Positions 1 through 47,730 of a stretch of DNA of 64,000 nucleotides are shown here, piece after piece. Position 1 is the first letter of the stretch; the number at the start of each line of letters is the position of its first letter. Where the stretch lies: the NCBI GenBank assembly GCA_034226945.1, contig CP120458.1, forward strand, positions 620,001-684,000, written 5' to 3'. A model generated the notes under the pieces. That model made no database searches. It saw only the letters and a program-made list of their open reading frames with translations, and was not told the DNA's origin. This DNA comes from Picochlorum sp. SENEW3. Its lineage: Eukaryota. The position numbers and the translations under genes are program-made.

Positions 1-619
1 GTTGGAGCCATGTGATGCATCTTCCATCTTTTGAAGTCATTCTCATGACGAGGTGAACCCACGAGTACGATACTGTCAACAGGATACCTGATTCAGAGGA
101 TCGTTCTGTATAGCGAAGGCCTCTGAGAAGCAGCTGGTAAAATCCATCTCGAGCGATTTTGCCTTCCTTTATCGTACATCTCTGGGGTGCAGAACACGAC
201 GCAAAACAGTTCGAAATGGCATGTACCTGTCAAGGGTGCATGTTACACAATACTGCGCGGGAATAGGAGACGGATTCGACAACTTGGACCACAGCATGGA
301 GAAACAACGCAGCGGCCCTGTACATATGTGGTATGGACAACGAATAAATCCATCGAATTGGTACTATGTCCCCGAGAGAGTGCGCCATCGCTCAAGTGGC
401 GTAATTGGAATGAATCTTTAGGACAGGTTAGGTGTTGCAGCCTGCCTATAAAGTCCTGGATAATGTACAGAGGCTGGGGTCATGTGAGACATATCCCCGG
501 GGTTTTGAAGTCGTGATCATCTTGAAGAATGCGGTAGACTGGGATTTCAAAATTATAGTGACAAAGTGGACGCATTCGATGGCCTGGGTAGGATTGATCA
601 GACATTGGGTGTCTGGGTG

Positions 620-1600
620 CGTCATTCCCGCAGAATGGGATTACACAGTTGAATTTCGAGTGGTCGACTTTCTAAAGTAAACCCCGGGGGCGTTGATGTA
701 ATATCATACATATAAACATCGACAGAATATGAGGCAGTGAGGCTAGCATCCTCCTCCAAAGGTGCAGGGCTGAGGAAGTATTATTATCGTTTTGTGGGCG
801 AGCGCAGCGAGCCTTATTATGCATGTATCGCATATAGATACATTCTGCCAGCAAGCACTAGCATTGGTCTACAACAGATCCGTGCTTTTTTCTTTATGCT
901 GCTCCTGAATTCCATCTTTGCTCCTTCGTTCTACCCATGGGTGAATGCCAGAGGCGATGATGCTTTTGCCCGAGCGCAGCGAGGCCAATAGTTCTCTATC
1001 TATTTGATCGCGATACCTTCAGGTTAGCGATAGTTATGGCGAGCGCAGCGATGCCATTTTAGTTTTTCCATGCATGGGAGCAGGCCATGTTTGTGTTCTT
1101 CCATGGCAGCCGTGTCCATGGCATTGTTGGAGTTTATCAAACAATCTGCGCAAAACCAGTGCTGAGGGTTAGTACCCGATGTGTGCACGGGTCTTTCCAC
1201 CGGAATGCGATGAGACAGTGGAATTTCGAAGGGTCAACTTACTTAATCAAGCATCGATCTCCGACGGGATAGGAGGCAGTGAAGTTGACAGCATCCTCCA
1301 AAGGTGCATGGCTGAGGAAGTATTATTATGGTTTTTGTGGGCGAGCGCAGTGAGCCTTATATATATATTGCATATACACATTCTGCTACCAACCATTAGG
1401 CACTTCCTTACTTCATGCTGCTCCTTCCATTTATCCATGGCTGATGGCAGAAACTACAATTCTTTTGGCCGAGCACAGCGAGCTATATATTCTCCACATA
1501 TTTGATCGCAATGCCTTCAGGCGAGCGATAGTGATGGCGGGCGTAGCGATGCCATTCATTTTTTTTTCACTCATACTGCAGCAATTTTTGTGTCCTTCCA
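620..1600. repeat. Diverged tandem duplication, ~540-570 bp unit (about 620-1080 vs 1190-1600)
   Basis: Collinear shared blocks, e.g. ctccaaaggtgca.ggctgaggaagtattattat at ~754 and ~1297, and gaatttcga at ~651 and ~1221. Confidence 0.85.
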
Positions 1601-2412
1601 TGTCAGTGGTTCGCGAGCAAAGCAATGTCATCTGTTTTCCTCAAAGACACTGTCTGCATGGTCATGCAGTATTACCAAACCCACCTCGGACGCGCTGGGA
1701 GGATGGTGCCCGGTCATGCCAGGCACTTCGAACAAGGATTCCTTACCAGTTTGCAACTGTGTGCTTGCGAAGGCCCTCCACAGGCACTCAACAGCAACAT
1801 CCAGGTGGCCGATGGGTGAGGAAGGATCCCGCCCGTGCCGAACGCAGTGAGGCCCCGGTTTAAGGGATCCTGACGAGGCCGGAGGACACAACTTCCTCCT
1901 TACACTCAGAGGGAAGACATCGTCACCAGCTTTGTCTGCCACACTCTGGAAAACGTCCCTCCTTTATTTGTTTCTCCATTCCATGTACTGCAGTCTTAGT
2001 CCTTTACAGCAAACAGACGGGGTCTTTATCCGGTTTGGCGAGCGACACGAGCCCTGTATCCTGTTTGCTTCATTTTGATATATGTTCGAGAGCGTTAGGC
2101 CTGCGAACTGGCTGGCGAAGAAGGCGATGCCAGGTTTTTCCAGCTGCCCAAATGCCAGGGAGCCTGGCATGTCTCTGGTTATGTGACACTGGTTACATTG
2201 AGTTGGCCGAGCGGAGCGAGGCCTATTTGTTATTGCAAGGCCGCCAGGCCTGCGATTGGGCTGGAGAGCGAAGCGATACCAGCCTTCTTTTATGATCTTC
2301 GGCGGCACACTGTCATCATGTCTATGTAAACGTTCCATCTAACCGACACAGCCGCGCAGCGACAGAGGGAGCCCTTCGGGCGACCGACCTGACAGGCGAG
2401 CGAAGCGATGCC
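797..2412 (+). repeat. Array of ~11 GNA-triloop mini-hairpins (stem-GA-gc-GNA-gc-GA-stem)
   Basis: Copies at 797, 968, 1038, 1340, 1467, 1536, 1837, 2037, 2205, 2263 and 2395, all on the + strand; some are degenerate. Confidence 0.85.
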
Positions 2413-2710
2413 TGCAAAAGACCCATGGCCTTGGGCCATGGAGTTTGGCATTTGCCAAACGGGTCAAACTAGTCCCCTATAAAAAAAAATTAAATAATCC
2501 CCTATCAAAAAAAAAAATCCATACCTCTCTTGCCCATAGGTACAAAACCCTGAAAACTCTTCTCTGTATGGAAACACGAATCCGAAGTGGCACGGCCATA
2601 AAGAAATGGCCCCCCGACCACAAAATCGGAAAGAAAATGAAAAATTAAAACTTTTCGGTAGCGTGGAATATCCCTGAAGTGCTCCGTTTCGCTGCACGAG
2701 GGCGATGATG

Positions 2711-2922
2711 GAGGTATGGAAGAGGTCTTGTTTAAGACCCCGAGCTAAATCCACGGTCGCCTAAAATACCCGACCGGCCAAACAAGGTCCAAAATCTAAA
2801 TGTTTTCTAACCCTAATACCCTAATCCCCCGGCCCCCTACCCAACCCTACCCGGTCCCTGGACCATTTGATGGGAACCCCCTAAATTTCAGGGGGTCTTA
2901 AATAAGGCCTCTTCTCTGTATG
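2711..2922 (-). mobile_element. 212-bp non-autonomous DNA transposon (MITE-like), copy 1
   Basis: Reverse complement of 25888-26099; subterminal IR AAGAGGYCTTRTTTAAGACCCC; flanks cgatgatg/ggatgatg (7/8 TSD). Confidence 0.9.
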
Positions 2923-5669
2923 GGATGATGACAATGGAGGATTAATAACTTTGACGATACGGCCAACAGAGACCCTTAAAAGATTCAATTAATGATATTA
3001 TTCGGAAATCTGGGTCATATAAGTAAGCGAAACTGGCGGAAGGTAAAAATTCGGTGAATCGGACGAATTTCGATGTAAACTTTCTAGAACGATAATGCCC
3101 GGTGACACAACCAACAGAATTCAAAAAATACACCGATTAATTGGGTAGAAAAGACTCATAGAAAGGCTCAAAGATGAGGAAGATATTGCGACTAATGTTC
3201 GCGATAGTCGACCTTGACCTCATGGGTTGACTGGGCACCACCTGGTGACAAGGAGAGTCAACGTGCTACTGTGATGTGGTGAGTTGACCAGGCATTTCAT
3301 CAGACACACCTGCAGAATGGAGACTTGTTGCTCTTTGATGTCAACACTGGTGTGGATGACCCTTTTGACTCGAGCTTTGAAGAGCCAAGGCGATGCAAAT
3401 ATCAGATGACAGTCATGAACACGCCAATACCCATCTTCCTCTTCTCGATCGCAGAGAAGGCTACGCCTACGCCCTAGAAATGCGGAGGATGCAAACTACC
3501 ATCTTGAACACGAGGATCTGGACAATTTGTCAGACGACAAAACTAAAAGTTTGAAGGTCATGTCACACAAGAGAAAGACAATCTCTCAGACCAACCTCAG
3601 GCCTTGGACAAATATTTTCAACGTTTTCGTTCCCTGTCTTGTCGTTGGCATACTTCGCTGAACAGCATCTGATTAATACTGTCTCCACAGGCAATAAAGC
3701 AACAGATCTACGCCCTGCTTGGTCAAAAAGGACTCTCTTGGCTCAGGCCTTCAACAAACTTGCAAGGAAAAGAGCCATGAATAATACTACTGGCGACTTC
3801 TTGCATTGGTTTCTCTCTACACTTGATATCTAGTGTCACATCGGATTACCTAGTAAATATCTGCACTTCATCGCTATGCCCCATGATAAGTATCCACACT
3901 TGCAGATCTCTCACAATCCAAGTAAGCTCTCCCAATCTACAAATCAGTTTACCCAAATGTCTATTTACGATCGCTAATCAACTCACAAATCGCCACTTTC
4001 GGCCCTCCACTACTTGTTTATATTTAAACTCGTGGTACAATTTCTGTAAGGTCTTTTTGGACCTCCGGAGGTCGGAGGGGATCCCCTGTGGCCTCGTGTG
4101 GGTTGAGTATCACTCGAGCGTTAACAACGTGGTTCGCAGAATGACCAACACCATTCTGCGAACACAACTCGCGGGTAAGGGCCAGCTGCAGCAAGTATGC
4201 AACAACGAAGAGGGAAAACGACGCAATTGGGAGTAACTAGTCTGTCCCTGACAAGGGTGTGACTGATGCATTGAAGAGAGACTAAAGTCAGATTTGCCTG
4301 AAGTATGACAGCCCTACTGCTCCTGTACGGTTTAGTGGTACCAAAGGTAAAAATTTCACAACCTGGAGCAGTCGTCATTTGGAAGGTCGAGGAAACCTGT
4401 TTCATTCACTAATGCTACACTGGCTCAAACAAAACACTACAGAGAAGTATGTCCAATGGACAATGTACAGGTCAGGAGGTTTTGTATATACAAAGGGATA
4501 TATCCCTTGATAAATTTCTCAACATTTTATTGAGGGATTTCCTCCTGTGGGGCTTGTATGATTTGGAGGATATTCGTCATATTTTTGGACTGTGTAATAA
4601 TCCCCTATTAAAAAAAAGGATTCTGCTGTCTGACCTTCTTCCATCTCTTCTTACTCACTGGTTTCTTGCTTTTTTCCCCTCCCTGGTCTCGGGGATGAAC
4701 TGAAGACCGAGGTCCGTGTTATATGCCTCCACCCGTATGCTTAGAGAATTTTTTTTGTTGCTTGTTTCTCATGCTATCCTGGGCATTTCTAAAGCACCCT
4801 AACAAGCCTGTAACTGGTGAGTGCCATCAGAGTTGATGCAAGCTGTGGTGCATTTAGGCACCTGGGGAGGACAATACCTCAGCCCTCAAGGACTGTACAA
4901 AACAGCCACGTATCTAAAGAAGAGGAGATTTCAAGGTAAGTTCTGTGAGAATGGCCATTTCATCCTCACGCAAGTTTATCAAATTCAAGTACCAGTATAC
5001 GAGGGATACCAGTGTATGATTAATTGATTGCTGCACAATCCACGCTCTATTCGAACCCAACTGCCAGTGAAAACCGAGCAGTGCTGTTGACAAGGAGATG
5101 TGACGGCAAGTATCAAATAGACTGTACCTTCTCGAAGGTGAGTGAGCATACTTCCCATGTCACTCATAATGTGCTGTCACGAAGTGGGATGGAGCACTTG
5201 GTGTCCCTGGTGGCAAGTTTGGAATAATTCATCAGGCGGTCCAATATACCCTCGAATACATCAACTTTCGACACGTATAGAAACAGTGAATATCGCCATG
5301 GAAACCTCGTGTGTATCTCCAGACTCTTTGCTCGTGTAAGCCCTTTGCTTAAAATTTGGTGATCTTGCATATAACAATAGTACTTCATAGGTACATTGCC
5401 ATTGTTTGTTGAATCTAAAAACGTTTTCAACCATTCGAATGTTAAGCCAATCTCAACCCAAAATCAGAATTCTAAGCCTTCCATCAGACAACCAGAGTGA
5501 CAGAATCGTAGCAAAAAGTTTTTTGACAAGGGCACTTCGGTGGATATCTGACAGGATGCTTCGGTGCCCATTAGATGCACTGCATTACCAGCGAATGCAT
5601 GATGTCCTGGCATTTCGGATTAAGCCTGGAAGCCTTGTCATGTGATCGTGCAGAATATAAAATCCACAA

Positions 5670-6623
5670 CTACAGCCCTTGTGACGAGTACAACTGGTTT
5701 CCAGTTGATTGAGCATTCCCATGAACAAATATTGTTCCTTTCGGATACTCAGATGGGCGCCAATCCGACCCTAAATTGTTGTATATGAATTCATGGTATC
5801 GATACTTGGATGCAAACTTGACCTTCATGTCCCAACTTGCGCTATTACCATGTGCCATCCATTCATGGAAAATGAAGGATATCAGGGCATCCCACGCTAA
5901 ATCTGGATGATTCTTTCCAACTTTTTCCACGTAGTTGAACAACTCGATAGAATCGGGTTGCGTGGAATACAGTGCTGCGCCATTAATGTGATCCATGTAA
6001 AAGTGAGGCGAGGCCAAATTCAGTGAGGCCCACTTCTTGTTTTGTGGTATGGATCCTAACATCACATAGTCGACTTCATGGCGTACCACATCTACATACA
6101 GTCTATCTAACCAATTCTTCACCACTGGCTGGACATCATGTTCCATCCAGAAGAATGCCTCATACCCTCTGTGGCGAGCATCAGAGAAGGCGGAATGGAA
6201 CATTTTGTTTGCAGCTCTGGGATAGACTTCGTCTTGTGCCGGTAGATTCACGTTCCAAAGAGAGATGGTATTGAAGCATTTTCTGTTCGCTGTACCCATT
6301 GCAGCAACGAGTTCTCTAAGGAAGACGTCCTCTGCTATCGTATCGTTCAAAGTGTTGATCTGAAATACAAGGTCCACGCGGTTCTTGACGTAGTATGATC
6401 CATGGCATGCTTTGGGCCACACACGCATAGATTGGATGGTTAAATCATATTTATGATTCACTACGGGAACCAAGATAGCAAATGTGGCTCGAGGAGGAGG
6501 ACCAGCTAGCTTCACGCTCCATAGTACTGCGGCGGTCGAGCACAGCGCCAACAGGTATACCTCAACTTTCCGATATCGTTTGCTGTCCTTTTTGTTGTTG
6601 CTGCTTCTTGTAGTGCGACGCAT
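5670..6623 (-). CDS. Type-II membrane protein, putative GT-A-like glycosyltransferase
   Basis: 317-aa ORF; basic N-tail plus TM helix; FFWMEHD (DxD-like) and HINGAALY motifs. Confidence 0.6.
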   Translation of the reverse strand: MRRTTRSSNNKKDSKRYRKVEVYLLALCSTAAVLWSVKLAGPPPRATFAILVPVVNHKYDLTIQSMRVWPKACHGSYYVKNRVDLVFQINTLNDTIAEDVFLRELVAAMGTANRKCFNTISLWNVNLPAQDEVYPRAANKMFHSAFSDARHRGYEAFFWMEHDVQPVVKNWLDRLYVDVVRHEVDYVMLGSIPQNKKWASLNLASPHFYMDHINGAALYSTQPDSIELFNYVEKVGKNHPDLAWDALISFIFHEWMAHGNSASWDMKVKFASKYRYHEFIYNNLGSDWRPSEYPKGTIFVHGNAQSTGNQLYSSQGL

Positions 6624-7843
6624 TTTGATGATTTGGAAAGTATGCCGATAGCAGCGTCTTGGGGATGAAGCCGAATAATAGCCATTTGGCAGCCAAGGGC
6701 TCCATTAGTTGTATTCATGCAGGCGCGTCATGAAATGCTGATCAACATGAGGCCGCCCTAGGCCTAACAAACCACTCAAGATCGACTCCTATCCCATATT
6801 CACGCCCAAACTCTCACCTTGCCATACCTGTGGCTGGAATGTGCATGGTGAGTCTGGATAGACGTCTTTCCCTGATTTGTGAGAATATCCCATGAAAAAG
6901 TGCTAGTGCAGCATATGAAAAGAATGAAAGAATGGCTGACATGCATCATTAGGAATGCATTACGTCGCTCTAGTATTCCTTATTAGTGGGGAAAGTTCAT
7001 GCATCTATATGAGGTCAAAGTCCATCAGGTAACAACCAGGGAGAAACCAAGCTCAGAGTACGAGGCCAAACTCTGCAGGCAAAAGAGTAATTAAACCATA
7101 AAAGTGAGATGCAGAATAATAGGTAGAGGAGATTCTGTGCACTCAGCGCATAGGGACATGTGCCTCTCAAGGATGCAATGCTGTACTGGTTTTCTCTGGG
7201 AACAATTTTAGACAGCAATCTGATGGTGCCTGCTCAAGACGATTCACAGGGTGTGTAGAGCATTTCTAAGCGATAATTAATCCACAAATCATGCTTTAAA
7301 AGAATGGGCTCCACCATGATTTCTATTCTCTCTCTCAGTCTCTCTCTAGAGAGTCTCTGCATGGTCTGACTTGCTATGGGGCCCTCCTAGGAGGCTTAGG
7401 GGTCTTGATCAAGAATGCCATGTTCTGCCGCATTTCCGCGTATATGGGTGAGCACCGCTCAGCTCTAGAGGTTTTATCATTGCTTGCCACCCTAAAGCAC
7501 CGCGGCGTTTCTTCCTATAAGCAAGAGTGCCGCAGCAATTGCAAGTGCTACTTTGGATGTGAAGAGGTTGTGGTCCAGCAAGGATAGGGGGGAATGGAAT
7601 CGGCAAAGAGAGGATAATGGGCCAAAGGATATTTTCTAGATTACTAGTATTTATATGTATTTGCAAAAGTTTACAAAAGCCAACTTTGGACCCAAACGCG
7701 GGGTATTACATTCACGGGAGTTATGGACCTTTAGAACTGGAAAAGTCGGTTCGACTATACATCAAGATCTTTCGTTACAATACGTATTCTATACACTCAT
7801 ATACTCAATATGAATTTCTGACCCAGCCAAGGCCGATATAGTC

Positions 7844-8932
7844 ATGGACGGCAGCAGGAAAGTCTACGAAGTAACCACAGCTGCAAATATGATGTCGAAC
7901 CAAGTCAGCAAGCAAACCAAATTGAATAGGAGAAGAAAGTATTATTCTCGAAAAAATGTGGGACAAGCGTTGGTGTATATTGACATAGCAAAAGTCCTAC
8001 TTGCTGTTTGTGTCATGTGGTTAACAGCAGCTGGACCACTAGGTAAGGATGCCATGTTGTTGGTGTTATCCTGATTGTCCGACTATATATGACCATATGA
8101 CTCAAGAGTCTACCGGAGTTTAGAGAGAACCAGAGAACTGATTGATTACTCAATAGAGAATACAATTGTCCAAGCCTTAGAATCGTGCAATCATGATAAA
8201 ATACCACTTTAACTATAAATACATTGTGCAGGGACATATATACACCACTGGGTACGAAGGCATGCATTCAATAAATTCCACCTCATCCAGCCAGTATACA
8301 TGCCAACCAATCCAAACAGAAAACACGAAATTGAGTATGTAATGAAAAAGAATGCAGCATTGTTCAAGCATTACAAACGAATAGATTCTCAGCATCTCTC
8401 AGACATATTCAAAGCATTCAAGCCACACAAAATCAACATCATTGCCAATGCTGATATATTCTTTGATGACACCATCAAGATGGCAAAATCTTTGCCGCAA
8501 AAGCATGTGTATGCCTTGAGCAGGCACGATAATAGCAATGGAAAGCTGTTCAAAAGACCAGATAGCCAGGATACATGGATATTTCATGGGCACATACAAA
8601 ACAGCATGCTGTTATCAGCACTCTACAACATCAATCTCACCCTAGGCAAACCAGGCATTGACAACAGACTGGCCTATGAATTGCTCCAAGCAGGATACCA
8701 AGTCAGCAACCCCAGCAAATCCATCACATCATGGCACGTCCACGGCACCAATCTACGAGAATACTCTCATCTAGACGTTGTCCCTCCCCCATATGCTATA
8801 GTGTACCCAATGACTCTGGAAGACGTGCTTGCTGAAGGAGACTTTCATGCCACGAGAATTGAGATTTTCCCTCATGGCTTTTCCCTCGAGCAAGTGAGAA
8901 GGATAATTGCATATCAAGACGATGATGATTAG
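7844..8932 (+). pseudogene. GT-A-like glycosyltransferase, 5' part disrupted (open portion 8300-8932)
   Basis: IIANADIFFD, YALSR, SQDTWIF, GIDNRLAY and HVH motifs; TM-bearing N-terminus (7844-8074) separated by stops/frameshift. Confidence 0.6.
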
Positions 8933-9029
8933 AAGTGGCTGGAAGATCACCAGTTAAAGACATGATATTCTAAGATCACAATCGATCGTAACATATGGTT
9001 GGAAATAAATGCATTTCTAGCAGCCATCA

Positions 9030-10451
9030 TCAGGCAATGGATGCGACAATTTCTCTAAGAAGTCCTGAATTCTCATTTTCGCGCGTTTTGCGTACAAACA
9101 TATACATATCGTCCGTGAGCTCTTCACGCTTCTGGCTCCATTCGTGAGAATCCTGATGAAGGGCAACCATTTTCCGTGCAAATTCTTCCTCGTTATCGGC
9201 AATTGATAGCCCTAAATCAGGCATAGATCTGGATGCTTTCGATGTCGATATACAGGGAATACAATGTTTAGCTGCAAGAAGGGTCTTAGTATTGACCCCA
9301 GTCCCATAACGAATGGGAGCGATCAGCACCTTAGATTGATTAATCTCTACAGCGAGATCTTGTACAAACCCTAGAAACTTCACATTACTTAAATTAGATA
9401 CTATTTGTTTCCATTCCTGCCAGCAATGTGCAATGGGATTTGACCCTTTGCACAAAGGGTTTCCCCATGGTTCATTACCGATTATTTTTAGGGATGCAGA
9501 TGGCAGGCTCTTCTGTACTAGTGGCCATATTCTCAGCAGGAGCCAATCAAGTGAGTAATAGTTTGTACTCACATGACCATTCCCCACAAAAATGAAGCCG
9601 TTTCGCTCGTGAAAACTCATGCTTCTACTCCACGAGCAATTGCGGCTTGGTAACCCTATTGGCATGACCTTTGGGGTTCTTATGGTGAAATGCGCACTCT
9701 CATCTCGCAAATCCTCATCTGTCAAAAATACATTAACAGTAGCATAAGCATACAATACTTTCATCCTTGCCTTTATCAATTTTCCCTCTTCTTGCATCAA
9801 AGATATCTCCCTTTCTGATGCCGTTGGGGATTTCCTTAGATCTAAATTTCTAGCAAAGTGCGCATCGTCATGAAGCAGAATGGTCTTTGGTGTGACCAAC
9901 AATGCCGCATCATAGGGAATGTACTTGCTTATGATTGGCATGAACCCAGCATTCCAAAACCAAGTTTGGCTCAGCACCACATTGTATCCTTCCCTGTTAC
10001 AGAGGGATGTGAAATTGAACCTCTTGACTGTAAAATGCTGTCTAAATTCATGCAAATAGGAATCTTCCGGAATCTTAGTTATCTCATGTAGCAAATCGAC
10101 GCTGCTCCCGAGAGACTGCAGCAGTCTCACTACTTGAATCAGCCTCTGATCACATCCCAGAGAGGGCATGGGGATGTGTTCAGAGAGAACTGCTGCAATT
10201 AATACCCTTCTCGGACGAAAGAAAAAGGTAATTCTATCTTCCCTCATGATCCATACTATCGTAAGAAATAGTAATGGCAATAGGAATACTCTCAGGAACC
10301 ATTGAAAAATTCGCCGCTCGCATTCTTTTTTCCTGTATGTGAAAGTGGTTGCTGCATGTTGCCTTTTAGCTTTTAATTTTTTCACGCTTGCCCTATTTCG
10401 GAAAAGGAATTTAAAGAGAGGTCCAAGAGATTGGATCGTGGCGAAAGCCAT
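9030..10451 (-). CDS. GT4-type (GT-B) glycosyltransferase with type-II membrane anchor
   Basis: 473 aa; FVGNGH..N, FLGFVQDL and IAPIRYGTGVNTK resemble Glyco_trans_1_4; N-terminal TM. Confidence 0.8.
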   Translation of the reverse strand: MAFATIQSLGPLFKFLFRNRASVKKLKAKRQHAATTFTYRKKECERRIFQWFLRVFLLPLLFLTIVWIMREDRITFFFRPRRVLIAAVLSEHIPMPSLGCDQRLIQVVRLLQSLGSSVDLLHEITKIPEDSYLHEFRQHFTVKRFNFTSLCNREGYNVVLSQTWFWNAGFMPIISKYIPYDAALLVTPKTILLHDDAHFARNLDLRKSPTASEREISLMQEEGKLIKARMKVLYAYATVNVFLTDEDLRDESAHFTIRTPKVMPIGLPSRNCSWSRSMSFHERNGFIFVGNGHVSTNYYSLDWLLLRIWPLVQKSLPSASLKIIGNEPWGNPLCKGSNPIAHCWQEWKQIVSNLSNVKFLGFVQDLAVEINQSKVLIAPIRYGTGVNTKTLLAAKHCIPCISTSKASRSMPDLGLSIADNEEEFARKMVALHQDSHEWSQKREELTDDMYMFVRKTRENENSGLLREIVASIA

Positions 10452-12987: not shown

Positions 12988-15900
12988 ATGAATTGCGATA
13001 CGGAGCGAAGTGTGCCCCAGGGTTGGGAAAGGTCAAAGAGGAGGAGAACTGGAACAAAAGAGGTATCCAAGCTGTGGACCGACTTCTACCAGTCATGCCT
13101 TCGCCTAGACCCTGAATGCCAACCTGCTATGATTGAGTATGATCAGGAATTGCAGCAGTATTGGTGCCGAGTGCAGTGCCCCTACGGGAAGTTTTGTGGG
13201 TATCATGGGGCACCTCACATCTATAAGAGGATGCTACTCGCGAAACCAAGAGAGCAAGATCGAAGGAAGTTGCTGGAGCATGTCAGAAACAAGCATCCAG
13301 AGATTGCCCTGAGGTTTGACGTGGCTGTGATGGAGGAAGAGGATCATACGGGCCACCAAAAGAGTCCAGAAGATGCTCCAAGGATTCAACTAGATGGACA
13401 AGTGTCCACCCCACTGCTTTGTAGTGACGAAGATCCAGCACTAGTGTCTTCTGAAGATGCAGAAAAAGCATTGCAATCATCCGATGAATGCAGTGTGTGC
13501 ACTGAGGTGAGACGACGCATGTCATCCTTCGTGATCCAAGCCTATAACCTTCTCAAGAGTGAGTCTTGTCTTGCAGGATCTTGAGGACAGCGACGCTTCT
13601 GATGATGAGGAGGCCGACCCAGACGACTTTGATACACCTACTAATGAGCGCTTCCGGTGCACCCAGGGTTCGCATTTCAAAAGTTTTCTCATGGCAGTGT
13701 TGGGTGAGGAAGAAGGAAACGATATTGGTCAGGCAGGGGAAGACATGGGTGAGGAAGATGAGGCACCCTGCACTTTGCTTCAGCTAACCTCTGCACTGCT
13801 CGAGCTAGAAATAAAGCACGCTATATCAAAGAAGGCGATGCAGGACATCTTGAGCATAGTGCGAATGGGGAGGAGAAACTATGACAGGATGATCATCCCA
13901 CCATCAATTCATCTTCTGAGGAAGACCATGGGTGTTCCAGACCTCCAAACTGTCGAATACCATAAGTGTCCCTGCGGATACATCTACAAGAATACTGTAT
14001 TACCCAACGAAAGGAATAAGGACGAAGAATGTGGAGCGGGATGTGGTAGGAAGAGGTTCAAGGCAGATAGTTGTGGGAGCCCAAAACCTTGGCAGCATTT
14101 TTACTACTATGGCGTCGAGAATTGCATCAGGAGTCTCTTTTCTTCCCAGAAATTTCGAGATTCGAGGAGCAAGAGCGTCGAGAGTGATCGCGCAGGAAAT
14201 TCAGTATACAAGTCTGCATGGTTCAGATGGCTGACAGAAAAGGAACCCAATGCAGGGGACAAAGTGACCAGTATTTGGTCCATCGGCATTGATGGATCTC
14301 AGCCATTTGGAAGAAGGGCCCATTCTTGCACTTTGATTGTATTGAAGTGTGAAGATATGGACTCGGAAGGCCGTTACCTGAGTTGTAACAGTAGGCTCCT
14401 TGGAATCATTCCTGGTCCAAAGGAGCCCAAAGACCTGAATCCCTTCCTATGCTTTATTGGTGAGGAGTTTGAGCGACTTCGATCATCCACAATGTCATAC
14501 GAGTACCAGGAATGCGATGAATCTGGTGAAGCCATCAAATATTCTGGAACTCATCGGCCTGTACTGGGATTTATTTATGCAGATGCCAAGGCAAGAGAAA
14601 AGGTCCATTTGTGCTTCCCAGGGAATGCTATCAAAGGCTGTTATTTCTGCTGGCAGCATGCCTCACAAGTTCTGGAACAAGAAGAAGGGACGTCTCGCAA
14701 GCGACGATTGTTCACAGGCTATGTGGAGAATGATGCAGCAACGCATGTCAATGGCCTTAATGAACAAGTGTTCAAGGCCTCTAGGGCCTCCGGGGCCTCT
14801 AGTGCCTCCAGAGATGATCGCCCTGCCATCGAAAAATCCGTTATCCGACATGCCGACATGGAGAAAATATTGAATACCATGAAGAATGCTACATTACATG
14901 GTACACATGACGGGACAACCCTGAAGGAATGGCAGAAACGGCTTGGCATTTACGACTATGCAAAAGTGTTTCATGTTGTCCCCACTTTACATGTCAAGCA
15001 TGGCATACCCGCCCCGCTGTACCATTTGGTTCTTTTGGGACTTGCGAAGAATTTCATCAAGTATTTATGGGATGGCCATGGTAATAAGAAGACCAGTGAT
15101 CCCGATAGCAGGAGTATGAGAGTCACCAGCAAGGAGACTATTAAACGATTGGAGAAAGGAATCATTCTGAGCAACTCTTTCAACCGTCCGTACTCGTCGA
15201 TAGAGTACTGCAATGGTTGGATTTGCGAGGAAGTCAAAGTTTTTATAGAAGTGCATTCGTGCGCTCTCTTCAATGAGGAGGTGACGGGCGTTCAAGTGCT
15301 CACACCAAAGGCCATGGAAGCTTGGGGACATTTGAGGAAATTCACCATGCATCATGTGAGCCATGGAGAGGGCTACAAACTCGAGCCATCGACAGCCTTG
15401 GAACATCTCAAAGAATTCTCCAGGATATGCCAGGAAGAGAAGGCATACGAATTGCTGACGCCCAACCTTCACACAGCCAACTGCCTCCTCCACCATCAGG
15501 AGAACTTCCTTGGCCCACTGGACAAGATGTCAGAACTCTGGGTGGAACGGGCCATGCGTCTTGTTTCTTCCACGAGTTGTATAAATGTTCCCGAATCAAC
15601 TTTGGCAAAGCGATATCTCATTAAAGCTGCTTTAGAGAGAGCAAAGCGGGAACTTGGGCCAGCTGACCAGAGTGCCATCCCTACATATGCCCCAAATCGA
15701 CAACGACTTGTCTCAGGGATGATGTACGACCTGCAACCGCATGCAACGTATTATCTTCGTGGGAAAGGGTCGGAGCAAAATGTAACCGGTTGTATCCAGG
15801 CCCGAGATTCTGCCAAGGATAAACTGAAGGCGTCTGTAGAGGGAGAGAAGGTGAATCTCCTCAGGGAATTCCATGCAAAACACAAGAACGAAAGGCCGAG

Positions 15901-16423
15901 AGAGCCGCAAAAAGATATCATATTGTACAACCATGCATCGTGCAGTATTTTGGTGGATGGCAAGGGCTTCAGCATCAAGTCGTTCTATGAGAAACGGGAC
16001 AAAAAGAGGCGGTCACACTTTGTCTTGCTAAGGGACAAGGATTCTGAGGCTCGCCATATTGGCCTAGTGTACGACTTTATCCGCATATTCAGTCCTCGAG
16101 CACCGGATGAAGTGGAAAGACACGCGGTTTGTGGGATATACAAGACTTCGAGGATGAATTACCATGGATCCACGGTCTACACAGTTCAAGAGTTCAAAGG
16201 GGAGAGCCCATGGAAGGATGACAAACATGTGACAACAGTACCAATCACAGATCTCGTGTGTCAGGTTTCTTGTTTCGAAATGATCAAAAATGGTTGGAAG
16301 GGAGAATGGCCCCACCACAAACTTGTAGGAGGCGGCAACAGAAAAGAAATGGACAAAATGCTTGCCTTCTTCCCGACGAAGGGGTCCACCTTCGCAACAG
16401 CGGAAGATACTGCTATCGAATAA
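12988..16423 (+). mobile_element. EnSpm/CACTA (CMC)-type DDE transposase gene, 2 exons (intron 13507-13576)
   Basis: GIDGSQPF, GIIPGPKEPKDLNPFL, ADAKAR..GCYFC, YHLVLLG and TPNLH..GPL..WVER motifs; a GTGAG...TTGCAG 70-nt intron joins ORFs 12907 and 13559 in phase 0. Confidence 0.85.
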
Positions 16424-16648: not shown

Positions 16649-19600
16649 TTACCATCTTTCCGGTGAACCGGTCGAAATAATAAAATATTGGCCAGACAGC
16701 TCGGTTTCTGAGGCCTCCTCTGGCCCATCCTCTTGAGCATCCCTGTCAGACTCTCTGGCACTGCTTCTCATGGTTGTGTTTGTAGAGACACTGCTTGATC
16801 CTCTTCTTTTGCTTACTTTTGAGCCGTATAAAGGCTTGGGGCGTTTTCGGCCGTCAGCAATGCTCAAACAAACAGAGCAGGGATGAAAGACCTTTGAATA
16901 CAATTGCAGCTCTTCGCGTGTAGCTTGCTGGATATGATTCTCGTCCAAACCGCAATGTGAGCACACGTTCAAATTCCTCTTTTGATGCAAACGGTTTCCA
17001 AAAAAGTAAGAACTTTCCATGGGAGTGCTGCATGTGAGCCCATCCCTGAGATAAAAGCTGTAGTCTTGCCGCTTCTGTCCTTTGTTGGCTCCTTCAGAGT
17101 CATCCTCGCACGTCATATCCACAATATCATTAGATCCGATATTAGATTCATGTAAATTTGATGCATGAATGACCTCTGAGCCACAGACATACATGTCCAA
17201 ATCGTTCAACTTCTTGATGTATGCCTTCTCATCCTTTGAAAGAGATTGTTTGGCATTCTCCAAATATATAACCCTCTTCTTTGAGCAGTTGCTACAATTC
17301 AAGAACGACCTTGCTCTATTGGCAGTATATATGCTGTGCTTTCCTTTCCGATCAGGTTTCGAATCTCGAAGACTTGGCTGTTCCATGTGGTTGGGGTGTG
17401 TCCCATACAACTCATCAAATGATTTGTAGTGTAGCTCATTTGGCCCTGCTTGTTTCCTCAATGGCAAAGGAACCCAGTTTAAGTCTTCAAATGATTCAAA
17501 ATCCATTCTCGGCGGCTTGATGATGCAACCTGTGCAAAATCTACAATCACAACCTGCCTTTTTCCTGATTTGCAGGACATACGGGGATTGGTGCACATGG
17601 TTTGTGAGGAACTCTTTTAGGGCACTTCCTTTTTTGAGAAACTCTGTAAAGTCTATTGAATTTCCACTGGAGCATTGCTCTTGGAATGCCTGTGGAAATT
17701 CGTCCAACTCCAAGAAGATAGATATGAATTCTGATATATCATTCCAATCTGCAGCTTGGTATAATTCGATGTCCTTCTCTTTCCATTGAAGCCTCTGCAT
17801 TCTTCCACCTATCACATCGATGGTTTTCTTCAAGCTTTTGTGAAGCATCTCTTGAAATGCTTGTGTTCCACCTTGATATTGCTTTGCTTTCTGGCGAACA
17901 GCACCCATTGAGTTGCATCCTTTCAATTCATCTTCCAAATCAGGAAGATGTTGCCTACAAAGGGAAACATTCTGCAATGCCAGATTCAGTACTGACATTA
18001 CTCTTTCTACGGGATTGCGAAAAGATAAATGTGGAACGGTTCGAGCGACAACCAGCATATCGAGGTCATGTTTCAGAAACAATGAAATGTGTGATGCAAT
18101 GACAGTTGCCCTTTTCAGATTCCTATCTGGGCCTCCATCCGTCAAAAGCATTAAAACAGGGGAATGCTTGTCTTTTAGATGCCTTGAAAGTTCTTCAACA
18201 TGTCTCCAGGGGCACGATTTCTGAAAGACTGCATCTTTTAAACCAACTGATACTTGCCCTTTGTACCAATCACCAGTGACTTTCTCAGGTACGTCATGGG
18301 CCAAGTAGACAGATGGAACAATGCAGGTTCCATCGTAATCGTGATCCAACGCAAGCATTTCAACACCAGCAGGTGCTAACTGGGGCTTATTCCTCACTCC
18401 ACTTTGCAGATATACTCCAGGGGGACCAACCATCACTCTGGCTTTATCATCAGCGCAGAAGAAGGAGCAGTGATCTCTGTATCTCACAGCAAATGATCTC
18501 AAATATTTAATGATAGCGTTTCCATAATGTGCATCAATATGGTCTATGTGAAGAATCCTTCGCTGTACTTTCATTTGAACATTGAAACGACTCTTGAAAC
18601 GAAAAGATGTCAGGCGATTACTGGCGCTTGGCATGAACTGCAGATACAGAGTTGAGGTGGATGGGACGAGATCCTCGTCATACCTTTCCTCCAATTCCTT
18701 CTTCATACGATTCTTTACCGTTTCATGCAAGTCTCGAATGGATATAACGCTAGAAAGATATCCCATTTCTGCTTCACCATGCCTTCTTGCATGCGCTGCA
18801 TCTGCAGTCTCGTTCAAGAACTCGCGTGTAATTCTCCAGAACTCGGCGAAAGCAACCTCTTCTCGGCGCCCATTCATTTTCCTTGCATCTTCTAATATTG
18901 ATCGATCTCCAGATAAAATCGCAAGTTCAAGTAAATCCTTCTGCTGCTGAGAAGTTTCATTTTCTGCTGCATATTCATTGCCAAGAAACTCAGAGCAGAA
19001 GGCCCTGAGCAATGGAACATCAGGAAATAAAGTGTTTGCTTGCCTGTCAAACGCCTTTTGAATCCACTTTTGGACGTAACACGAACTTGACCTTCGGCAC
19101 TGCTCGATTGCATCATTTACTTTTTGATCATGGTCCTTGTCTTTACTATCCACCTTGAAGATCCACACTTCGTCACGGAGGCTTCCACCATGCTCCACAT
19201 GCACCATCAAGGAATTGAATTGGATTTTGACATTTCTACGAAATTCCCAGTACGAGAATCTGCTCGTATAATCAGGAGTGAAGTCAATGAGCGGCAGTGG
19301 TTTGTACATCGGTGCTTGACTTAGTGCATGATTCAACTTCTTGTATTTTGGTGGTGGAGGGAGGAAGTGTGAGCGCACAGTGCAGATTTTTATTTTTTGG
19401 TTCCCTAATGAATTGGCGTTCCAATCCTCCCAAGAAGCATTCCACAGCTCTTTCACTCGCTTTGTCGACTTCCTCTGAGCCCTTTCAATGCACTCTTCAG
19501 TCTGGGCCCCAACTGACTCTAGGAGCCCATTCAGGAATTCAAACATCTGACCACTCCCTTTGGTAAAACAGACACTATCAAGTATAGCAGTCAGCTTCAC

Positions 19601-20455
19601 ATGAAGATCATTCAATGTAGACTGATCTAAGGGCGCACGTTTCTTCTTCCCTCTCTCTGCATTGGTATCATGAAACGAAAACCCAAGAAACCTATCCAAG
19701 TCAATTGGAGGCTTTTTCTTCCACCCATTCCTGTTAATTTCCACAACATTGATTTTCCATAGAATTTCTACTATTGAATCGAAAGATTTTTCTCGTTCAT
19801 CGATCCGCAGATGACCCACGTATCTAATATTGTTCTCAATACAATAGTCCAACAAAGCATTCCAAAGCTTGCATTTACCATTGCTTTCCTTTTTGGGCTG
19901 AGGTAGCCTGTTTCGGTCATACTTGTATACCTCATCATGAATTTTCTTTTGATTAGACATCAGCAACTGATTGACATCTACTGGTGTCTTGGATTCCGTG
20001 ACCTGCCTGACCTGTTCCTCTTGTAAAGAAGAAATTGTGAACTTTTCTAACTTGACTAGAACTTCGATCTGGACGGTCGTTTTCATCGCGTAATCGACAA
20101 GGGTTTCCATTTTCACTTCAAGAGACTCTTCAGATCCAAGATGAGCACTTGCTCCTGCGGCACACTTCATTCGAACCTGCAAAATAGACAACTTGAAAGG
20201 TCGCTGGAAAGTTGACCCGACAAAACGTGTACAAATGTGCCCTACCTCGTCGATGACGCATCCTTCTGCCACCAGATAATGCGATATCTTTTTGTTTTTA
20301 TCTTTTACTTTCTCATCCTGCTTGAAGATGACCTGCTGTATGGTCTCATTCTTGGAGACATTGTTGATCAGGGTAGTCCAGGCGAACTTGTCGCCTAAAC
20401 AGTCCTTCAACGTGATTGAAAGCCACACAAATATATTAGTGTCACTCATTATCAA
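16649..20455 (-). mobile_element. Zator-like DDE transposase (1268 aa, intact ORF) with C-terminal Cys clusters
   Basis: DAHY, DDKARVMVG, DHDY, PSV, TDGGPD and S.RNPVERVMS.LN motifs typical of Zator/TP36-related transposases. Confidence 0.75.
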
Positions 20456-21377: not shown

Positions 21378-24300
21378 ATGGGCGACCAGGACTCTCCACC
21401 ACTGTGGACTCAGGAGCAGGGCAGAGTGCTTCAAGGTCTAGATATCATACCCTTTGATCCACAGAAATGTGAAAAGGACTTTTGGGACCTGCGCCGCGGG
21501 ACTGATGCCTTCGATCAGGCTCTCGGAGCACGGGTTGAGGCAGGGAAGCTGTATGAGATATCTGGGGAGCGATATTACACGTCCTTGAGGAGACAGGGAC
21601 GACTGCGTCTTCCAATTCAGACCTTTAACGATGCCAATATCATCTACTTGAAAAGAATATGCTATGCGTTTGGCGGCGAAGACATACCGCGCGACGAAGA
21701 CCTGCGCGAATATCTGGTCTTCAATAACGGGTTCTGGCCGCTGCGTACCAGGCCATATATTGTCGCGTGCCCATCTGCTTTATCGCTGCCTTCCAGTGTG
21801 ATTTCGTTTCCTTGTATATTGAATATATACGAGGTTGATGAGCCCGCAACCATGCCGAAGTCAGTGCCCAAGTATGCCAAGGACTTGATGCAATTCCACC
21901 TGTTAGTGATGAAGCAAGATATGCCGAGCTTGTTGTTTGACGATGACGTTGCAGACCTTGTTGGGATGTGTATTTTCGTCCTCAAAGACCCTGACATGAA
22001 TACACTTGATCGAGGCGTACCTGTCTGTGAGTTCTTCCTTGTTTCTTTGAGCAAAGAAGAAGAGCAGGTTTTGAATCACACTGGCATCCAAGTTCTATCA
22101 GACCATTATATGCAGCATACGATTCCGAGTGATCGATGCAGTATTGAAATAGAATATTTAAATCCTGACAATTTGAACGAGTATCCCTGGCAGAGAAGAC
22201 CTATGCGTGAGGGTCGTCTTTCGTATGAATGTGGGCAAAGTGTCATTAGGAGGAAAGATGGTGTTTGGGGTATGATTCTACAAGAACGGGAACATATCGA
22301 CGCAGAGACGGGAGATCTCCACAGAGAATTCGGGATATCATGCGACAAAGACATTTTGAAAGAAGGAAAGCTGAAGCCTGGGCACAGATTGAAATATTAC
22401 CCCACATCCGAAATAATGGGAGTGTTTGCATGCCCGCCAGTGCGTTTTCCTATTCATCCAACAAAAATGGGGCAGCGAGTGGTGGTGTACGGTGCTGGTA
22501 ATTCCAACAAACTATCCATTCCAGACGGGTCTTGTGGTGTCGTGAATGCTGTCATCGAGGATGGTCCGAGAACCTCCTTGATGTGCACCGTGGCTGTGCA
22601 AGAAGAATATCCCAGCATATAGACAACACAGATTGACGTGAAATTAAAGTATACGAGATTTTTGTTGCTCGACAACGAACAGTATGTATCTCATCAATCT
22701 TCAGATTATGATAATGCGAACATTCCGCGCAGGATCATTTACAAATTCGAAAATCTGACCTTTTGCGAGATCAAAAAGCTGTTTGAGACAGCGCAGAAGA
22801 GCAGACTGGTTCACAAATGTAGCAAAGGTACGATCTCACGAACAACTTCAATTCGATGCCCTTGCTGATCTATCATCACCACTTTCGTCATCCAGGTAAC
22901 GAGAGTTTGGTGCCAGGTGACGATACCCTTGACATCTTGGAGCAGAAGAGGAAGGAAGCGGGGCATCAGGACTATGTGGCATGGTTGGCTTCTTGTGTCC
23001 ATTCCGACCCGTTCTTTGGCAAGACCTGCGAGCGTCGAGCCAATGAACGCTCCGAAACATATGTGGCATTGCAAAAGCCGACGGAGACCATTGCTGTACT
23101 GACTTGCTCAAGGGGACAGCAGAAAGCAGTGCCGGCAACAAGCAAGCAAGGAAAGAAAGTCAACTGTGAATACAGAACCCGCCTCACAAAGTTTCGATAC
23201 GAGGATGCCATCTACGCTGAGGCACTTCAGACCCACACAAATCACGAACCGGGTTCTGGAGATTATCACGAGCCTGAGACACCTCGACTGAAGAGGGCAT
23301 TGGATGACCTGTACGACCTTGGATTCAAACCTGCAAAGGCTGTCAACGTTATCAAGTATCAGACAGGTGCCACTCGGCATGATCTCACGGTTGAGGAACG
23401 ACATCTCTTGAATAAGACGATGGCAATTAGAGTCAAAAAAGCATACAACAAGCGACAGGCCTCCGGGAACGACCTGGATGCTTGCGAGGCTCTGTACAAT
23501 CAACACCGCGAACACTTTCTATACTTTGAGCGAGGCGACGATGTGCAGATCGCCATTTGCAGCCCAGAGCAAAGAAAGGTGATGAAAACCTGCCATACAA
23601 TGGTGTTCGCTGATGCTGTGCATTGCCTGAATCGAAAAGGTGATGTGACATTGGCTCTCCTGCTGCGAGATCCATATGGCATGGGCTTCCCAGTGGCCTA
23701 CTGCATATGCTCGGGGGGCGAGGATTCCACCAAATGGAAAAAATTCATCAGAGCCGTTGTAGATGCATGTGATGTACAGATCGATGACATCACCTTCATG
23801 ATTGACAAATCCACATGCTGCATCTCTGCTTTGGACCAGCTCAACTGCTTCTGGGTCCTGTGTGCTTTCCATTTCATGCAGAGCATCGGGCGCAAAATGA
23901 AAAGCCACGGCAGTGGCGTGTCTGGACGCAGTGATCGCGACAAATCCAACCGAAACACAATCTTCAGATATGTCAACAAGCTCAGGCTCGTCAAGGACGA
24001 GGGTGCCTTTGATTCTGTGGCGTATGAATTCATGACCTTCCTGGAGAATGAAATCTGGCCGAGATGAAGGAATATTTCATCAAAAATTGGATGACAATCA
24101 GCGATCGGTGGTCTCAATATGGAAGGAAACACATTGCCTTCTTGAAATCAAACACCAACAATCTGATTGAGCGGCTCTTCAGGACTGTCCAAGAAGAGTT
24201 CCTTGACAGGGAGAGACTGGGTCGCAGAGACAGCCTCATCCTAAAATTCCTCGACGAAGTAACACCACGATACCTTGATCGACTGCAGAAGCGATTACAA

Positions 24301-25306
24301 GGGGCCGAAAAGGCCAATGCGCGAGTGAACCAACACAAGCATTTGACAGGTGTGGACACGTGTGGCAGAACCATGCAGCCCTATTGTGCCACTGGCCAAG
24401 GGTCCCTCAGCGACTCGTGCCTCATCAAATTCAATGTGGATAATCAGATGTTCTACTGCTGTACCGGAGACCTCAGCTGCACTTGTGATGACAACGACGA
24501 CGACATTTGTATGCATGTCGAAGCTGCCATGAAAAAGTACCCCATCACCTACGAGATGGTGAGAAAGGTGGCGTCTGTCGTGAAAAGCCGCCAACACGAG
24601 TATGTCCAGAAGATGGCGACACCAGCTCCGTTTCATGGTGCAGAAGACCATCATGTGGAATTGTCCGATGTCGACATTGATGAGGACAACACGGTGTATC
24701 AATGCTTGCCGGTGTGCTTTTACCACCTGGGACCAAAACCACGCAGAAAGTACTTTGTCAACATGTACTACAAAACGTGCACGTGTCATTGCTTTTCCTT
24801 CTTCGGCACATGTCCACATGTCATAGCGTTAGGCGCTACGGATGAAGACGATATGGATCCTGCGGAGAAACTCCAGAAATCTGTCCAGATCAGGAACGAC
24901 ACTCATGTCAACGCGGAGTGGGAACGAGCCTTAGTTCAGGCCTTTCCCGCACCAAGCCATGGCTCAAGCCAGCTGCGACATCCTGACGCTTGGAAGACGG
25001 CAAATCACGGACCCTAGGATGCTGACCAAAATACAGTTCAACAACGACCAGAGAGTCGCAACCTCGATCCTCGACGAATTGCCCCGACATCTTGATGGCC
25101 GGTTCATGGAGCTCCATCAGACATTCATGCAGGGTATCCGACAATTGCAGGAGATTGGCATCAACGAGTGTCGGAACCAGAATACCAATTCAGCCCCTGC
25201 ATTCAATGCCAATATGGCCTACATCCCTCCTCAACCAAGCTGGCACAGGAACCCCAACCCCAGCACTTCTGTGGCGCAATACGAGGACATGGTGATTGAA
25301 GAATAA
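21378..25306 (+). pseudogene. Mutator (MULE) transposase with FAR1/WRKY-like Zn finger and two SWIM fingers; one in-frame stop and ~3 frameshifts
   Basis: FADAVH, GMGFPVAY, FMIDK, CAFH, TNNLIER; SWIM CTC..CMH and CTC..CPH. 21378 and 22638 ORFs share a frame across TAG 22620; frameshifts near 22860, 24062 and 24970. Inclusion of the 21378 ORF is inferred. Confidence 0.8.
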
Positions 25307-25545: not shown

Positions 25546-25575
25546 GGGTCTTAAATAAGGCCTCTTCTCTGTATG
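25546..25575 (-). mobile_element. Solo 'left' end of the 212-bp family, just downstream of the MULE gene
   Basis: gggtcttaaataaggcctcttctctgtatg is the exact reverse complement of the family terminus. Confidence 0.85.
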
Positions 25576-25887
25576 GACGGCTGGCCTCTTTGATGCTGTC
25601 CTGGCATGAATTCTCTCTCAATCGCCACTGATAGATCACTTGCCTGAGGACGGCTGAATTTCCCTTTACTATGATCTACATCGATCAAAACGAAGGATGC
25701 CTCTGACTGCTGAGTGTTCGTTCAACAGATGGTCCTAATCGGGCCCATCCTAACCACCATTCAGGTCTCACCGCTTTGTATGTCTAGAAATCATTCTTTC
25801 AGATATATATACGGCACATTGTCTTCTGAAACAGCGAGACGGCCAAGGTCGTTCGTGTCTCGCATCCATACAGGGGTGGGTTTAAGA

Positions 25888-26099
25888 CATACAGAGAAGA
25901 GGCCTTATTTAAGACCCCCTGAAATTTAGGGGGTTCCCATCAAATGGTCCAGGGACCGGGTAGGGTTGGGTAGGGGGCCGGGGGATTAGGGTATTAGGGT
26001 TAGAAAACATTTAGATTTTGGACCTTGTTTGGCCGGTCGGGTATTTTAGGCGACCGTGGATTTAGCTCGGGGTCTTAAACAAGACCTCTTCCATACCTC
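25888..26099 (+). mobile_element. 212-bp non-autonomous element, copy 2
   Basis: catacagagaagaggcc...gacctcttccatacctc; apparently identical to copy 1. Confidence 0.9.
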
Positions 26100-31479: not shown

Positions 31480-31519
31480 CTTCCCATGAAACCCCACGAG
31501 CCACGGGCAGACGGCCTAG
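31480..31519 (+). other. Candidate Helitron 3' terminus (...cacgggcagacggcCTAG|t)
   Basis: CTAG followed by T about 160 bp after the helicase stop, with an imperfect upstream hairpin; alternative CTAG at ~31624. Confidence 0.45.
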
Positions 31520-31836
31520 TAAAAACCAAAAAAAAAATAAAAAATTCATTTTCATGCAAGCAATGAAAAATAATAAATTTCGGCACAAAAATTTAGCATA
31601 CGTGCATCAAGCGAGGTATTTTCTAGCGATTTCTGCCCTGTATGTCGCGATATTCCTTTTTGCAGTCCACTGCAACACGACACGTGGACGACCGCGTGTA
31701 CTAACAAAGGTAATGCAGTATAATAATACATGAGACAGGTCGTTGTCAGCAGTGCATATGCGATGGCATGAATCGATGAACCTGAATCGTCCGTGTTTTC
31801 TTACAGGCTGTAAAACAAAATGAACAATGTGAGCGC

Positions 31837-45777: not shown

Positions 45778-45794
45778 TTTAAAAGTTTTGGAAG

Positions 45795-47729: not shown

Positions 47730-47730
47730 T

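Follow-up and report, generated by a model that had tools for sequence, protein, structure and literature searches.

Here, we examine the hairpin-rich left end of a 64,000-nucleotide (nt) stretch of the genome of Picochlorum sp. SENEW3 (GenBank assembly GCA_034226945.1, contig CP120458.1, positions 620,001 to 684,000 of the forward strand), which we call the window and whose own coordinates are used throughout. Its first 2,472 nt (1–2472, + strand) appear to be the 3' portion of a mobile element of the Helitron type, which continues past the left window edge and has collinear copies in three metagenomic contigs (L123, L127 and L125). Within it lies an array of 12 small hairpins of the form stem-GAGCGNAGCGA-stem, at 797–2414 and all on the + strand, of which a first-pass annotation made from the letters of the DNA had counted about 11. 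We see about an even chance that the array is a set of cis-acting signals on single-stranded DNA (ssDNA) which internal duplication has spread within the 3' portion of a rolling-circle transposon of the Helitron type.

The array stands out from the rest of the window both in number and in strand. A search for GAGCGNAGCGA with at most one mismatch returned 12 matches in the 64 kilobases (kb) compared to 2.25 expected (standard deviation 1.59), a count that none of 100 shuffles reached. Nine of these lie on the + strand at 800–2408, and the remaining three, each with one mismatch, are scattered (12505(−), 23528(+) and 29407(+)). Allowing two mismatches added the hairpins at 1840 and 2040 and, with the degenerate copy at 2117, the total comes to 12; this count leaves out a site at 1615, which lacks a stem, and a bare GCGCAGC mini-hairpin at 2352. 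The shorter word GCGNAGC, which has the DNA mini-hairpin sequence (GC-GNA-GC with a C-G closing pair), occurs eight times on the + strand of 1–2472 (seven times inside the 12 hairpins and once at 2354) and never on the − strand, compared to four times on + and seven on − in the other 61.5 kb. All four GNA loops described in the first pass are present, namely GCA, GTA (core at 1539), GGA (2209) and GAA (2266 and 2398), with GTA being private to the window copy, as L123 and L127 have GCA there. The G and A of the triloop are retained around a free middle base in 9 of the 12 hairpins, the exceptions being those at 1471, 2040 and 2117.

The hairpins fall into three types by their closing stems: type A is GGC-core-GCC, type B is GGCC-core-GGCC or GCC-core-GGC, and type C is NNGGC-core-T-GCCNN, in which the T is bulged. 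A tandem duplication explains the first six, as the units 620–1190 (hairpins A800, B972 and C1041) and 1191–1640 (A1343, B1471 and C1539) align with each other both in a global alignment and in BLAST (71% identity over 392 nt); Tandem Repeats Finder reported no repeat over the array because the units are too diverged. In the first unit, hairpin A is GGC-GAGCGCAGCGA-GCC (797–813), hairpin B is GCCC-GAGCGCAGCGA-GGCC (968–986) and hairpin C is ATGGC-GAGCGCAGCGA-T-GCCAT with its T bulge (1036–1057). Correcting the first pass, the GCCC...GGCC form at 968 is a single mismatch private to the window copy, as the sister copies L123 and L127 have GGCC...GGCC. In the second unit, hairpin A is GGC-GAGCGCAGTGA-GCC, with a G.T wobble as its inner pair (1340–1356), hairpin B is degenerate in every copy, with an ACA loop and a weakened stem (1467–1484), and hairpin C is ATGGC-GGGCGTAGCGA-T-GCCAT (1534–1555).

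Downstream of the two units, the hairpins follow each other as B-A-C-B-C-C, so the recurrent A-B-C order claimed in the first pass holds for the tandem units and breaks down after them. The first of these, B', is GCC-GAACGCAGTGA-GGC (1837–1853, core at 1840), nested in a longer stem (1823–1830/1864–1871), and the AC/GT inner pair previously reported for it is real, with the inner G-C replaced by A-T. It is followed by a degenerate hairpin A with a GAC loop instead of GNA (2037–2053), a hairpin C with the decayed core GAAGAAGGCGA (2112–2133) that is intact in L125, a hairpin B of the form GGCC-GAGCGGAGCGA-GGCC (2205–2223), a hairpin C whose stem is lengthened to GGCTGG/CCAGCC (2259–2284) and a last hairpin C, CAGGC-GAGCGAAGCGA-T-GCCTG (2393–2414). 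The block CGAGCGNAGCGAG, with its two CGAG arms, is exact in three hairpins (799–811, 971–983 and 2208–2220); in type C hairpins the 3' arm is CGAT with the T bulge, not CGAG.

Only the last hairpin lies inside the conserved right terminal sequence of the element (2338–2472), the others being upstream of it. This terminal sequence is common to diverged subfamilies, with matches in three metagenomic contigs (L124, L126 and L128) and at 60747–60815(−) in the window, a second insertion that consists of the right terminal sequence only and begins within the last GA hairpin. It contains the GCGCAGC mini-hairpin (2352–2362), which is conserved in L124, and a GCCC-TTC(G)-GGGC hairpin (2371–2381). After the last hairpin C come a hairpin of 8 base pairs (bp), CCATGGCC-TTG-GGCCATGG (2423–2441), whose loop is GAA in five other copies, among them the 60.7-kb copy, L124, L125 and L126, and AAA in L128, and an 18-nt terminal palindrome, GTTTGGCATTTGCCAAAC (2443–2460), which ends 12 nt short of the element end. 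The element terminates with CTAG (2469–2472), followed by a T at 2473, and all 12 hairpins are on this CTAG-bearing strand. The palindromes at 2423–2460 that the first pass had listed separately are the terminal hairpins of the array-carrying element, and the 'family-like termini' it saw at 2519–2570 belong to an unrelated family of MITEs (miniature inverted-repeat transposable elements).

A 22-nt word from 2409–2430 retrieved six metagenomic contigs (L123–L128) that carry copies of this element. L123 and L127 are roughly 96% identical copies, collinear with 145–1110 plus 1286–2473 and thus without 1111–1285, and a contig of run X12 likewise joins 1103 to 1286; L125 is a 90% copy, collinear with 1905–2489, while L124, L126 and L128 have in common only the last 90–150 nt or so. 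In L123, L127 and L125, array and terminus are carried together at 90–96% identity, each time with a different 3' flank. When the eight 3' ends (the window end, the 60747–60815(−) copy and L123–L128) are lined up, seven share an identical end point, ...GTTTGGCATTTGCCAAAC GGGTCAAACTAG; that of L128 is too diverged to place and was left out of the terminus counts. Of the seven placed ends, four read CTAG, in agreement with the CTRR terminus of canonical Helitrons, whereas two (CTTG) and one (CATG) deviate from it. Their 3' flanks are mutually unrelated and start with T in all seven, which makes at least seven independent insertions directly before a T. The 5' end of the element lies past the left window edge, so that insertion between A and T is seen from the 3' side alone. 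The region 1–4676 is also covered by many short contigs at 90–99% identity and high word depth in all four runs mapped (marine and lake metagenomes, one coded organism and one RNA library, X19), the word depth falls after about 2505, and contig X12-15 ends at 2473.

The palindrome 12 nt before a CTAG end, together with insertion just 5' of a T, leads us to read 2472 as the putative right end of a Helitron, where such a palindrome is expected about 10–12 nt before the 3' end. No coding capacity for transposition is seen in the visible part: stop-to-stop open reading frames (ORFs) in 1–2600 reach at most 169 amino acids (aa), and none of the 11 ORFs searched in 1–2650 matches Pfam at E ≤ 0.1, RepHel included. 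The motif is spread over several different short frames, and with no continuous ORF and no Pfam match it is not the trace of a conserved peptide repeat, one of the two outcomes by which the first pass would have been refuted. A RepHel gene does lie elsewhere in the window, at 26916–31355(+), in two ORFs on an island of 58–62% G+C, with matches to Helitron_like_N (5.6e-51) and PIF1 (2.6e-40).

We considered whether the array belongs to that RepHel element and rejected the link, as their 3' ends have only CTAG in common, and the RepHel element therefore belongs to another family. Downstream of the RepHel gene, a single window copy of ...GACGGCCTAG|T near 31519–31522 is likely to be the 3' end of this different Helitron family. 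Helentrons carry subterminal inverted repeats at their termini and insert between T and T; a Helentron or DINE-1-like identity was likewise rejected, as the array element ends in CTAG|T with a canonical Helitron palindrome. The A-rich runs after the end (2473–2518) could suggest a retroposon, a reading we discarded because they are present in the window and L125 flanks only and absent from the other five of the seven. As a separate observation, a word (A/T)A(G/T)TCCCCTAT followed by 8–11 A occurs three times, in 2468–2514 and 4596–4617, with a similar word in the flank of L125; it could mark where another repeat ends or reflect a preference for A-rich targets.

In each hairpin, as judged from its letters, a CGAG block is joined to a GNA triloop, two DNA motifs known from nuclear magnetic resonance (NMR). 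The heptamer GCGNAGC melts at 76.5 °C, is not denatured in 7 M urea and has a stability that standard energy models do not account for, and related mini-hairpins bind single-strand-binding protein (SSB) poorly and are found at the complementary-strand origins of phages G4, St-1 and alpha3, at ssiA of RSF1010 and at the early promoters of N4 (PMC13037366). Those sites share with the array a GC-GNA-GC core with a free N, placed on one strand of replicons with an ssDNA stage; they differ in being described as single sites recognized by primase or a virion RNA polymerase (PMC13037366), whereas here a eukaryotic transposon carries an array in which tandem G.A pairs and a stem of variable sequence lengthen every hairpin, and a priming role could be drawn only by analogy. 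In the CGAG block of the AUTS2 promoter, solved by NMR, 5'-CGAG-3' stands opposite 5'-CGAG-3' and forms C:G, sheared G:A, A:G and G:C, with the tandem sheared pairs held between G:C pairs (PMC10085684). The array has the same arrangement; in contrast to the long AUTS2 microsatellite with its shifting register (PMC10085684), it uses a single block with a triloop cap and a covarying Watson–Crick closure. On the complementary strand both features turn into pyrimidine mismatches, and the fold would therefore be specific to one strand.

The closing stems covary, as the first pass had noted. In an alignment of type C hairpins (12 rows from the window, L123, L125, L127 and L128), 89% of cells are paired, a value reached by none of 500 shuffles and compared to 17–57% in slid controls; pair 4–25 is A-T in six rows and C-G in five, and pair 5–24 is T-A in ten and A-T in two. 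In the alignment of types A and B (11 rows), pair 7–21 is G-C in five rows, C-G in four and U-G in one, and the inner pair 11–17 is G-C in nine, G.T in one (at 1343) and A-T in one (at 1840), so that both a wobble intermediate and a completed compensatory change are present.

Helitrons are among the closest known settings for such a strand-specific fold. Helraiser has 5'-TC and CTAG-3' ends, and 11 nt upstream of the latter lies a palindrome of 19 bp that acts as the terminator of transposition; ssDNA is the only substrate cut by its HUH nuclease, and the model proposed for it has the helicase pause at the hairpin and the CTAG-bearing strand released as an ssDNA circle (PMC4778049). The array element resembles the right end of Helraiser and Helibat in its CTAG, its palindrome 11–12 nt upstream and its insertion before T and, by analogy, in having a structure read on ssDNA, with the hairpin strand corresponding to the excised one (PMC4778049). 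Unlike known Helitrons, which are described with one terminal palindrome, it has two, plus about 12 mini-hairpins of one design across 1.7 kb, a comparison that covers its 3' part, as the window includes neither the 5' end nor a partner. Among Helentrons, the non-autonomous DINE-1 (PMC4067079) and oyster elements (PMC7492417) are similar in being rolling-circle transposons without detected coding capacity and with tandem repeats inside; they have other termini and satellite-like repeats that are not known to follow a conserved hairpin design, whereas the array element has only two clear tandem units. A literature search, in which most matches were judged by their listing, found no link of Helitrons with this hairpin design, GNA, triloops or mini-hairpins, and among the papers matching 11-mers of the core, the titles listed point to primers and constructs.

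Folded, orientation-dependent signals that are active only on the displaced strand of a HUH-driven element are familiar from the single-strand origins (sso) of rolling-circle plasmids and from the subterminal hairpins of IS200/IS605. Both are prokaryotic, and we liken them to the array by role and orientation, not by sequence comparison; to our knowledge, no sso has been described for Helitrons.

Lying on the strand that corresponds to the excised one, the hairpins are probably signals read on ssDNA. A RepHel transposase would peel the CTAG-bearing strand in the 5' to 3' direction, and every module would then snap into a compact hairpin, in which a G-C stem encloses a CGAG block (the tandem sheared G.A pairs) and then a C-G pair capped by a GNA triloop. 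Acting in cis on the single strand, these hairpins could slow or pause the helicase near the terminator; alternatively, they could stay free of single-strand-binding protein and offer landing or priming sites for turning the circle into duplex, in the manner of the single-strand origins of plasmids. Tandem duplication inside the element would have raised the number of modules. The shared 3' end, the mobility of the element, the strand of the hairpins and their pairing pattern are the observed parts of this picture, and the element with a single-stranded intermediate proposed in the first pass fits the context, with a Helitron-type 3' end and hairpins on the CTAG strand; the origin or recognition role that it also proposed is one we infer rather than observe.

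Several observations weigh against cis-acting signals, and against the selection on structure that the first pass had put forward. Covariation speaks for such selection, but we estimate only about five independent compensatory changes, because the counts come from paralogues and near-identical copies. Across the two tandem units, hairpins are identical at 51 of 56 positions and spacers at 299 of 386 in a global alignment, a difference that favours a function, but some stretches of spacer match the hairpins in conservation. The hairpins at 1471, 2040 and 2117 have degenerated in all or most of the copies, with 2117 intact in L125; subfamily L124 has its own insertion site and lacks four hairpins (2040–2266), and both L124 and L128 show damage to the hairpin within the right terminal sequence. 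Nearest-neighbour DNA folding of 1800–2475 (676 nt) gives z = −0.86 on the + strand and +0.68 on the − strand, and among single hairpins compared with 200 shuffles each, type C does better (6–16 of 200 shuffles fold as well) and types A and B do no better. Contigs of RNA library X19 span 372–2426 at depth 3–13, making a transcript-level role possible, and neither the 5' end of the array element (TC after A) nor an autonomous partner with this terminus was seen in the window. The folding results, including the −0.5 to −4.5 kcal/mol given for the hairpins by the Mathews-2004 DNA model, carry little weight either way, because nearest-neighbour models have no term for the stability of GNA loops or sheared G.A pairs. 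The strand-specificity of the array also adds little support for selection, because the copies arose by direct duplication within one element.

The strongest of the competing explanations, which we nevertheless consider unlikely, is a neutral by-product: a segment with a terminator-proximal hairpin would have been duplicated in tandem, leaving inert copies that look conserved because they are young, G+C-rich or homogenized by conversion. The plain tandem duplication with its two units at 71% identity, the equal conservation of non-hairpin blocks, the three decayed hairpins and the transposition of L124 without four of them all fit this explanation, and direct duplication alone accounts for the single-strand orientation. 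Beyond 1800, however, nothing but the hairpins can be aligned, whether among themselves or with the right terminal sequence. Similarity between this terminal sequence and the DNA upstream is likewise restricted to hairpins, which ruled out the idea that the internal units are whole degenerate right terminal sequences. Against inert copies stand also the stem differences, which are paired changes that keep complementarity, including the G.T intermediate and the completed A-T, as well as the presence of the same core with other closing stems in unrelated viral contigs.

In the IMG/VR database (loci L001–L122 and L187 onward), GGC-core-(N)-GCC occurs in at least 122 viral stretches. The ungapped pattern occurs in at least 123, compared to 56 for the letters read backwards, a control with the same composition and the same Watson–Crick closing that was scanned completely; for the GCA loop alone, 98 viral stretches (72 distinct contexts) compare to 6 control matches in which the free position is C. 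Of 47 further exact cores in the sequence flanking the GGC-core-(N)-GCC matches listed, 35 have at least two closing pairs (for example, GCCC/GGGC and GGCGCGC/GCGCGCC). Among the contexts listed, two or more extra pairs beyond GGC/GCC are found in 45 of 180 real compared to 9 of 50 control contexts, and three or more in 15 of 180 compared to 0 of 50. The core is thus enriched in viral contigs, and three large phage-like genomes carry strand-specific local clusters of it, with forward and reverse counts of 5 and 0 in G001 (146 kb; G001:C1:89955-94982), 3 and 0 in G002 (230 kb, with terminal repeats; G002:C1:201711-202018) and 0 and 5 in G003 (G003:C1:1671-2184). Three cores of G001 lie 50–75 nt upstream of opposite-strand genes, one of them an SSB gene (about 75 nt); in L072 the cores are on the coding strand, and in L100 the core lies within a 132-bp tandem repeat. 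A search for relatives of the phage-like G001 returned a tRNA-Arg as its sole match.

This viral enrichment suggests a reusable ssDNA signal, not a quirk of one transposon. A bolder version, which we regard as improbable and which proceeds by analogy, is that a closing stem, CGAG block and GNA triloop form a general cross-kingdom ssDNA signal, with the array as a single-strand origin that would keep the strand protein-free and recruit priming, and the strand-specific clusters of large phage and giant-virus contigs as its equivalents (origins or hairpin promoters). If true, the second-strand step of Helitron transposition would have its first assigned cis-element in the array.

A role in RNA, in which the array would be transcribed and its hairpins would act in the transcript (in stability, processing or as a small-RNA source), appears very improbable to us. 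The X19 contigs over the array are compatible with it, as are the G.U-compatible changes, the tandem G.A pairs, which are tolerated in RNA too, and the UUCG-like loop at 2371–2381. The X19 depth is, however, low and of undefined strand, with DNA carry-over possible, and Rfam gave no family match at gathering in the whole window or at E ≤ 5, with only chance-level hits, at E > 4, in 600–2700. Moreover, an invariant C-G closing pair and a GNA triloop with a free N follow the rule for DNA mini-hairpins (PMC13037366; PMC3201870).

Slimmer still is the chance that AGCG-N-AGCG, a direct repeat, serves as an iteron-like site on duplex DNA for a transposase or host factor, with the complementarity of the flanks being secondary. 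The core does contain a 5-nt direct repeat, (G/C)AGCG twice, and in rolling-circle replicons short iterons beside the origin are the binding sites of Rep proteins; such sites need no complementary flanks, yet those of the array covary, and the free middle base between a retained G and A in 9 of 12 hairpins fits a triloop. No more probable is a carrier that lacks inverted repeats and is not a Helitron, for instance a retroposon or an HUH element of the IS200/IS605 kind: the 5' end and transposase lie beyond the visible part, CTTG or CATG takes the place of CTRR at three of the seven ends and the window end is followed by A-rich runs, but these runs are missing from five of seven flanks, the palindrome 12 nt before CTAG|T matches the published Helitron description point for point (PMC4778049) and the window itself holds a eukaryotic RepHel.

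For cis-acting ssDNA signals in a Helitron-type 3' region, the significance lies in what they would make accessible. One 3' hairpin is known as the terminator of Helitron transposition and an ssDNA circle is thought to be an intermediate, with no cis-signals described for that strand. A family that carries a dozen copies of one compact hairpin on exactly the strand corresponding to the excised one would offer a concrete handle on helicase pausing, terminator marking and second-strand priming. If the hairpins are inert, the case still shows the multiplication of a terminator-proximal module within a Helitron.

The remainder of the window is rich in other repeats. At 2709–2923 lies a 214-bp MITE whose inverted ends are 23 nt long and whose interior includes a TTAGGG-like stretch, with copies at 25888–26101(−) (100% identical) and 35536–35749(−) (92.5%), and a contig of run X12 that joins 2703 to 2924 represents an allele without the insertion. 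Solo ends of this MITE are found at 25546–25576, 47733–47763 and 59715–59774, and a 51-bp relative at 2520–2570. Depth in RNA library X19 peaks by a wide margin over a repeat at 4009–4676 (reaching 471, compared to 3–13 over the array). The cover breaks off near 4676 in three runs (X12, X10 and X19), while the fourth, X5, goes on at low depth.

Very long ORFs (954, 1268, 414, 403 and 317 aa) at 13559–16423(+), 16649–20455(−) and 21378–25017(+) have no Pfam match and, lying between transposon remnants, are candidate transposon proteins of undescribed families. A 354-aa ORF at 54332–55396(−) combines a long Glu/Lys/Arg-rich repeat (EEERKRKEEE...) with an N-terminal signal-like and a C-terminal hydrophobic segment. 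Finally, intron-less glycosyltransferase genes (GT1, GT2 and DUF5672) are clustered with a methyltransferase gene at 5670–10451, 44791–52168 and 62292–63998, and by their features the nearest look-alikes of these genes are bacterial.

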